IMG/VR virus record: IMGVR_UViG_2579779052_000002
Source: a virus
Taxonomy: Duplodnaviria; Heunggongvirae; Uroviricota; Caudoviricetes
Length of the DNA stretch: 46,256 nucleotides
Direction: 5' to 3' (one strand)
A program made the translations under genes and the position numbers. Below are positions 23,515-23,803 of the stretch, in pieces (the first letter of the stretch is position 1; every line of letters begins with the position of its first letter). Below the pieces are notes generated by a model. The model did not search any database. It was not told where the DNA came from and worked only from the letters and a program-made list of their open reading frames with translations.

Positions 23515-23588
23515 AGCCTCCTCCCGGGTCCAGAACGCACTCAGCCGGGTATGGTTCAGCCCATTTTTCCCGGCGTCTCATGCCGCAA

Positions 23589-23712
23589 ATGTTAACTGCT
23601 GCCTGGTTAACATTTGCTGAAAAAGCCTGTTAACATTTTTTCCGCACAACAAACTGAATAATAAAGATAAAAACCGCAAAAATGCCCGGGCAGCCAGTTA
23701 ACATGTTAACTG
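23589..23712. repeat. cluster of five GTTAAC-containing 12-mer repeats (direct and inverted), candidate terminase-binding / cos-proximal site
   Basis: GTTAAC at 23591, 23606, 23629, 23697, 23705 within extended motif (A)TGTTAACATTTGC; lies between HNH and small terminase genes. Confidence 0.5.
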
Positions 23713-23803
23713 CCCTGAAACGGGAATTTTTTCTCTGCGTGAGAGGGGGCGCGGTGTCCAAAGCGATCGTTTTTTACGCCGGATGATCCCCCCCGGGGTC
23801 GGG

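Follow-up and report, generated by a model that had tools for sequence, protein, structure and literature searches.

A five-site repeat array beside the cos cleavage block of an Escherichia coli Stx-type lambdoid prophage as a putative binding element of the small terminase

Organization of the Packaging Locus

The stretch of DNA analyzed here, denoted as the window, comprises 46,256 nucleotides and harbors a spacer (23515-23803) that is flanked by the minus-strand packaging genes HNH, terS, and terL, followed by a prohead protease-capsid fusion. The HNH endonuclease gene (23804-24169, minus strand), located 289 bp upstream of terS, encodes the accessory nuclease of the packaging module (PF01844, E = 3.7e-8; phrog_589). 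The terS gene (22951-23514, minus strand) encodes the small terminase, the proposed binder of the sites described below (phrog_641, E = 7.6e-68). TerS residues 2-57 align to positions 1-56 of the PF03592 (Terminase_2) profile (E = 1.3e-8), and weak matches were obtained to the SF6 DNA-binding-domain structures 4zc3, 2cmp, and 3zqp (E = 0.19-0.8). The TerS N-terminus is assigned by these matches to the SF6/SPP1 G1P-type helix-turn-helix (HTH) DNA-binding domains. The large terminase gene terL (21293-22954, minus strand) is of the HK97 class (PF03354, E = 2.1e-11; PF20441, E = 4.2e-9), and its product is 83% identical to TerL of Salmonella phage FSL SP-016. An earlier note on this DNA, written from its letters and open reading frames, had placed the spacer between an HNH endonuclease and a small terminase gene; the PF01844 and PF03592 matches confirm both flanks.

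Judged by its sequence, the window is a BP-4795/2851/1717-type lambdoid prophage of the E. coli Stx type. Its HNH-terS junction is 94-99% identical to those of BP-4795, 2851, 1717, YYZ-2008, and many Stx1a/2a/2c prophages. Of 5426 complete E. coli genomes, 1278 carry the packaging region, some with as many as 7-8 copies (about 3000 E. coli copies altogether). Nearly every E. coli copy is flanked by HNH and terS, and annotations of more than 1200 E. coli genomes list an HNH endonuclease at this locus. The interval from the lysis genes to HNH contains a DUF3950 ORF (24151-24411, plus strand) and a TonB_C-domain ORF (24543-24884, minus strand), a pair also annotated in Lys8385Vzw and in strain ZH49.

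The GTTAAC Repeat Array

Five GTTAAC cores, starting at 23591, 23606, 23629, 23697, and 23705, occupy 120 bp of the spacer (23591-23710). The hexamer occurs 15 times in the whole window (7.0 +/- 2.5 expected), a count reached in none of 100 shuffles. Common to all five spacer copies is an oriented 8-mer, ATGTTAAC, which is represented in both orientations. Exactly five copies of it exist in the 46-kb window, all in the spacer cluster (0.97 expected; no shuffle reached 5); they are confined to 122 bp, a length for which, by simple inference, about 0.003 copies are expected. The cluster is far above chance expectation. The earlier description, five cores within 125 bp embedded in related 12-mers in direct and inverted orientation, stands with respect to the cores and their excess and needs correction in two details. 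The span is 120 bp, and the inverted 12-mers GCAAATGTTAAC (23585-23596) and GTTAACATTTGC (23606-23617), although 100% complementary, are limited to a single pair of copies (sites D and E below), whereas the unit shared by all is the 8-mer.

In gene orientation the array begins with sites A and B, the doublet GTTAACATGTTAAC (23697-23710, unstranded; +34 to +47 from the cut described below), which together form the perfect palindrome CAGTTAACATGTTAACTG. The next 60 bp or so are rich in T-tracts and include an A/T-rich stretch, read from the sequence, that separates the site groups (23640-23682, unstranded). Beyond it lie site C (23629-23636, minus strand; +110 region) and site D (23606-23613, minus strand; +133 region) in the same orientation, and the reversed site E (23589-23596, plus strand; +148 region), the partner of D in the inverted pair. 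Counted from the left end, the cores are positioned at +34, +42, +110, +133, and +148, at successive distances of 8, 68, 23, and 15 bp, and the start of terS is at +230. The whole array (+34 to +153) thus occupies the first-packaged end, with the cut on one side and terS on the other.

A reading of GTTAAC as a restriction site for HpaI was dropped, as it is unsupported and leaves both the oriented 8-10-mer and the link to TerS unexplained. An IHF-like match (23647-23659, minus strand; one mismatch to the consensus) is located between the site groups, but such matches number 72 in the window (47.6 expected); the match is not above chance and lends no support to a role for IHF.

The Cleavage Block

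The induced Stx1 phage Lys8385Vzw was reported to be of the cos type with the 3' cohesive ends CGCCCCCCCT, as determined by PhageTerm (PMC7946995). The ends of its record (MT225100) agree with this result: the record ends with GATCGCTCCGGACAC CGCCCCCCCT, GGACAC directly adjoining the 10-mer, 59 nt past the HNH stop codon, and starts with CTCACGCAGAGAAAAAATT...GTTAACATGTTAAC, opening with CTCACGCAGAGAAAAAATTCCCGTTTCAGGGCAGTTAACATGTTAACTGG. These ends are homologous to the window from 23759 down to 23697; the two spacers are about 94-96% identical, and all five sites are present in Lys8385Vzw. The corresponding cleavage box, GGACAC/CGCGCCCCCT/CTCA (= GGACACCGCGCCCCCTCTCA; 23740-23759, minus strand), was found in 194 fetched loci, and its homolog holds the MT225100 ends. 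By homology to Lys8385Vzw, from which it differs by one G/C exchange, the 10-nt 3' cohesive end of the window would be CGCGCCCCCT (23744-23753, minus strand), a cut position transferred from this relative and from one PhageTerm analysis. The assumption that the HNH-terS spacer contains a cos site is borne out to this extent, by homology, since the mapped ends of Lys8385Vzw fall into the homologous box.

Other records are less informative about the cut. DNA searches for phage records ending in the spacer returned close relatives that are all prophage-derived. Burkholderia phage records starting 21-27 bp before terS were rejected as mapped ends, since they end 21 nt downstream of the homologous cut. 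Two IMG/VR contigs of the E. coli type (L168 and L254) end 4-5 nt past the cohesive 10-mer (...CCCCCTCTCA and ...CTCAC, respectively); this is suggestive, but was set aside as cos evidence since assembly breaks could explain both as well as physical ends could.

In sequence comparisons, a gene-sense run of seven G (23788-23794, minus strand) delimits the conserved cos block on its upstream side. In most TerL-related loci, 6-9 consecutive G precede the cut box by about 35-50 bp, irrespective of the TerS type or the upstream gene. On the other side of the cut, the element CGCAGAGAAAAAATTCCC (23722-23739, minus strand; +5 to +22 of the left end) is invariant in E. coli-type spacers and kept across genera. 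Since it is conserved even at loci with a different TerS, it follows TerL/HNH and not TerS.

Two further features of the block were observed. Between G-run and cut box, enterobacterial phage copies have a conserved GATCGC element (23764-23769 in the window, CGATCG with GATC). It is not conserved in the cos cassette of the satellite island treated below and is probably dispensable for packaging. In several O157-type prophages (records H103-H109, PPompW prophages), the G-run (about 23792) is the insertion point of ISEc20, an IS110-family element that replaces the HNH side, with similarity to the window beginning at query position 49. Cos cleavage may be defective in these prophages; alternatively, the G-run may serve as an IS target.

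Conservation of the Repeats

About 130 of the 194 fetched loci containing the cut box have the five-site spacer, and column statistics were calculated for 59 distinct E. coli-type spacer sequences. None of the 30 GTTAAC core columns and one of the 44 10-mer columns vary, vs 132 of 225 other spacer columns (59%; Fisher p = 1e-13). The same holds for the terS-proximal segment taken separately (1/30 site columns vs 93/152 others, p = 9e-10), and site C is invariant in all 59 variants. A pattern with four of the five sites was encountered at no locus, core loss at 0 of the 194 loci, and even an 88%-identical copy (L287) retains all five sites. This distribution indicates that the repeat sites of E. 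coli-type spacers are under purifying selection.

Layouts in Other Genera

FSL SP-016, Enterobacter and Citrobacter relatives, and many IMG/VR relatives encode a TerL that is 82-83% identical and a TerS that is 42-49% identical to those of the window, and their spacer measures merely about 100-106 bp. These short spacers share with the window the G-run, GATCGC, the box, the AGAAAAAAT tract, and the doublet, which takes the form GT[AT]AAC[AG]TGTTAAC in the Salmonella, Enterobacter, and Citrobacter relatives. In these relatives, the second hexamer already contains the terS start (xTG TTA ACN, encoding M-L-T), so that the doublet overlaps its ribosome-binding site (RBS) and start codon. The window terS also opens with M-L-T (GTG CTG ACA), 183 bp further along; sites C to E, which are proximal to terS, and the A/T tract are therefore regarded as extra DNA. 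It is speculated that this extra segment arose by duplication of the terS 5' end. Since the short-spacer relatives cope with the doublet alone, with at most one distant site besides, the triplet may be accessory or redundant.

Alternatively, duplication of terS 5' ends may have left the three copies C to E behind as neutral relics, with the doublet alone, or no site at all, being functional. The ancestral start ATG TTA AC lies within the motif, as does the terS start of short-spacer relatives within the second GTTAAC, and the 183 bp of extra DNA in the window contain three further ATGTTAAC(N)GGC-like copies. On the other hand, the three copies are invariant in the 59 variants while their flanks vary, and an independently evolving satellite (see below) retains all three exactly although the DNA between them has diverged. 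Such a neutral origin of the triplet is therefore considered very improbable.

GTTAA-type hexamers near the terS start are not restricted to enterobacteria. Pairs of them straddle the terS start in prophages of Pseudomonas, the Burkholderia group, Pigmentiphaga, and Oceanisphaera, whose DNA of about 60% GC contains almost no such hexamers elsewhere. GTTAAC itself is present at terS or close to it in the Pseudomonas, Oceanisphaera, and Pigmentiphaga loci. A Proteus mirabilis ATCC 29906 prophage (L006, 2575-2731) carries 11 in-phase RTTAAY hexamers within the terS linker; their spacings are all multiples of 12 bp, and they encode xVNx repeats. Possibly, the TerS recognition array is placed inside the gene in this prophage.

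A PICI-Like Island Carrying the cos Cassette

In E. coli Ec-042-T5-ESBL (L286, 1-9200), the box and the sites are found at the end of an island of about 9 kb that adjoins clpS. The annotated island genes encode an integrase, an HTH regulator, an Icd-like protein, a RepA-family helicase, and a protease-capsid fusion; terS, terL, HNH, and tail genes are absent from the annotation. From this gene content the island looks like a satellite of the PICI type. It retains a G-run, the cut box, whose 10-mer is identical to that of the window, CTCACGCAGAGAAAAAATT, an A/T-rich tract that is partly conserved, and all five ATGTTAAC copies, spaced as in the window. The intervening sequences have diverged, and beyond site E, the last element retained, homology to the window stops directly. 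L289, a sister island occupying this locus, lacks the cassette of about 215 bp; the cassette-bearing form of the island occurs in 28 complete genomes. The protease-capsid fusion of the satellite was also considered as a helper-matched (Ccm-like) homolog of the fusion protein encoded in the window and was ruled out as such, as a comparison of the two revealed no significant similarity.

A satellite should retain only what packaging by its helper needs, which places the functional cos at about 23587-23794, with the repeats inside. The island also bears on the question of whether the sites are operators that control the transcription or translation of terS and the late operon, or part of a small ORF or RNA element. 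This would be in line with the overlap of the doublet with the terS RBS and start codon in short-spacer relatives, and with a 24-codon ORF that begins at the ATG of the doublet. In the satellite, though, the array is located at the island end with no terS or late gene downstream. A gene-sense scan of the spacer detected neither a promoter nor a terminator, the sole promoter-like match being antisense and built from the repeats, and no Rfam match was obtained; the 24-codon ORF was discarded, as it is frameshifted or truncated in several variants. Control elements of this kind are the least probable of the explanations weighed here.

Association With the Type of Small Terminase

If the repeats serve packaging, the question arises which protein reads them. 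For this purpose, 76 TerL-anchored loci were compared, 50 with a homologous TerS N-domain and 26 with a different TerS. In the cos/terS-start zone, hexamer density is 3.37 per kb at the former (43/50 have at least one) and 0.20 per kb at the latter (2/26 have one; background about 0.12 per kb), a difference of which part could be coding signal, as the motif partly overlaps the terS coding start, and which in part reflects block inheritance of the terS 5' region among phylogenetically non-independent loci. Among the loci with a different TerS, a clear G-run, cut box, and A/T tract can be recognized at about half, and many also encode an HNH homolog; in place of the GTTAA hexamers, they carry other motifs, e.g. 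AATCAGCAAATGG. The motif is thus swapped together with TerS while the TerL/HNH block stays, which suggests that the cut block follows TerL/HNH and the GTTAAC word follows TerS. At seven prophage loci (L029, L031, L037, L042, L047, L049, and L050) that have a homologous TerL/HNH and cut box and encode a TerS beginning with M-A-G-V-K-G, AATCAGCAAATGG or TCAAATTAATCAAATGG was observed about 90-100 bp downstream of the G-run; both are candidate recognition words of this TerS lineage.

The repeats could also be part of the packaging signal without TerS being their reader; HNH, TerL, or a cos-bending or cos-organizing nucleoid protein of the host might read them instead. Retention by the satellite and conservation demonstrate a packaging requirement and leave the identity of the binder aside, and HNH proteins of cos phages are described to act at cos (PMC11331095). 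Against such a reader, the motif changes with the TerS type although TerL, HNH, and the cut block remain homologous, and the TerS N-terminus is itself a recognized DNA-binding HTH. A binder other than TerS is therefore disfavored and rated as unlikely.

A Model for the Two-Part cos Site

Four lines of evidence, i.e. invariance, co-occurrence with one TerS type, retention by a satellite without terminase genes, and the position between cut and terS, lead to the reading of the repeats as recognition sites. The five GTTAAC repeats are most likely the putative binding sites of the small terminase, and the suggestion of the earlier note that terminase recognition sites lie here gains support from the same four lines. 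Taken together, it is considered likely, with some reservation, that the spacer constitutes a two-part cos of an inducible-type lambdoid prophage, composed of a TerL/HNH cut block and a five-site array bound by TerS.

According to this model, the cleavage block would extend from the G-run through the box to the AGAAAAAAT tract. The HK97-class TerL, aided by HNH, would nick on either side of 23744-23753 and yield 10-nt 3' overhangs, as shown for the cohesive ends of the relative Lys8385Vzw. HTH domains of an oligomeric TerS are supposed to bind sites A to E; the T-tract DNA between the groups probably bends, so that doublet and triplet could contact one TerS assembly. TerL would thereby be positioned at the cut, and packaging would run towards terS. 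It is proposed that the array acts as lambda cosB does for gpNu1.

A wider reading is more tentative and is given somewhat less than even chances. In it, ATGTTAAC/GTTAAY is the cognate word of one widespread SF6-type TerS lineage, used in interchangeable layouts and contained in a portable cassette of about 215 bp that is captured by satellites. The layouts would be a doublet at the terS start in most relatives, a five-site array that emerged by duplication of the terS 5' end in the E. coli Stx type, and the 11-copy in-gene form in Proteus. If this reading is true, a sequence-readable code of packaging specificity would exist for the mobilization of Stx phages and satellites.

Roughly one in four complete E. 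coli genomes harbors the module, and many Stx1, Stx2a, and Stx2c prophages are among its carriers. With the cut site and the probable TerS sites at hand, prophage ends become predictable from sequence, and 23587-23794 (about 210 bp) represents a defined segment for the mobilization of cos plasmids or satellites by Stx phages. The locus also offers a tractable system for the question of how an SF6-type TerS cooperates with an HK97-type TerL and HNH nuclease. The portable cos cassette of the satellite and the in-gene motif array in Proteus are by-products of the analysis. For this phage group, the cos 10-mer has been published before; the repeat array, of which a full-text literature search found no earlier description, is an expected kind of feature, and no novel type of mechanism is revealed.

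Comparison With Known Packaging Systems

The cos region of phage lambda consists of cosN and cosB, with the sites R3-I1-R2-R1 bound by gpNu1 and IHF. Both in lambda and in the window, the cut is followed by short repeats of mixed orientation on the first-packaged side, upstream of the small terminase gene; the repeats are split by a bendable A/T-rich segment, and the array occupies roughly the initial 150 bp of the left end. In arrangement, conservation, and TerS linkage, the window repeats are compatible with candidate recognition repeats of the cosB kind. The systems differ in that TerS of the window has a Terminase_2 HTH and does not belong to the gpNu1 family, in the 10-nt 3' overhang (in Lys8385Vzw) vs the 12-nt 5' overhang of lambda, and in the HNH partner, the five sites, and the perfect palindromic doublet of the window module. 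The layout of lambda cos is also summarized elsewhere (PMC6092414).

HK97 (gp74, HNH; gp2, TerL; gp1, TerS) shares with the window the gene order HNH-cos-terS-terL, a PF03354-type TerL, 3' overhangs of 10 nt, and an A-tract that closely follows the cut (PMC11331095). By reading DNA shape, its TerS recognizes one 15-bp site at +15 to +29 (PMC11331095). TerS of the window belongs to another family (PF03592), its candidate element is a five-copy array at +34 to +153, and in the family of the window the A-tract follows TerL/HNH and not TerS. By its TerL class, the upstream HNH gene, and the 10-nt 3' ends (by homology only), the module falls among the HK97-class 3'-cos modules; its TerS is of the PF03592 Terminase_2 family and not of the HK97 gp1 type. 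The earlier label of an HK97-like cos is thus apt for TerL, HNH, and the 3' overhang and fails for TerS, which is of the SF6/SPP1 type in place of a protein that reads a single 15-bp site.

SPP1 and SF6 phages package their DNA by the headful (pac) mechanism, and recognition of pac in SPP1 has a pacL/pacR layout. The N-terminal HTH of their G1P proteins belongs to the same Pfam family as that of the window TerS, and multiple short repeats, possibly inside terS, are a further likeness (cf. the in-gene array of the Proteus prophage). In contrast to these phages, the module of the window is cohesive-ended, as judged from a close relative, and comprises an HK97-class TerL and HNH; it does not fall among the headful systems.

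Closest to the window are Lys8385Vzw (MT225100) and the BP-4795/2851/1717 group, which have the same packaging module with five sites. The Lys8385Vzw paper reports only the 10-nt cohesive sequence and does not describe the repeat array, and a full-text literature search retrieved no description of the array as a recognition element. Cos-carrying PICIs such as EcCICFT073 and SaPIbov5 resemble the L286 island, an integrase/primase-type satellite with a helper cos at its end. Published E. coli PICIs, e.g. EcCICFT073, have a lambda-type cosN without the cosB of the helper (PMC6092414), whereas the L286 island carries the cut box together with the whole repeat array of an HK97-class module.
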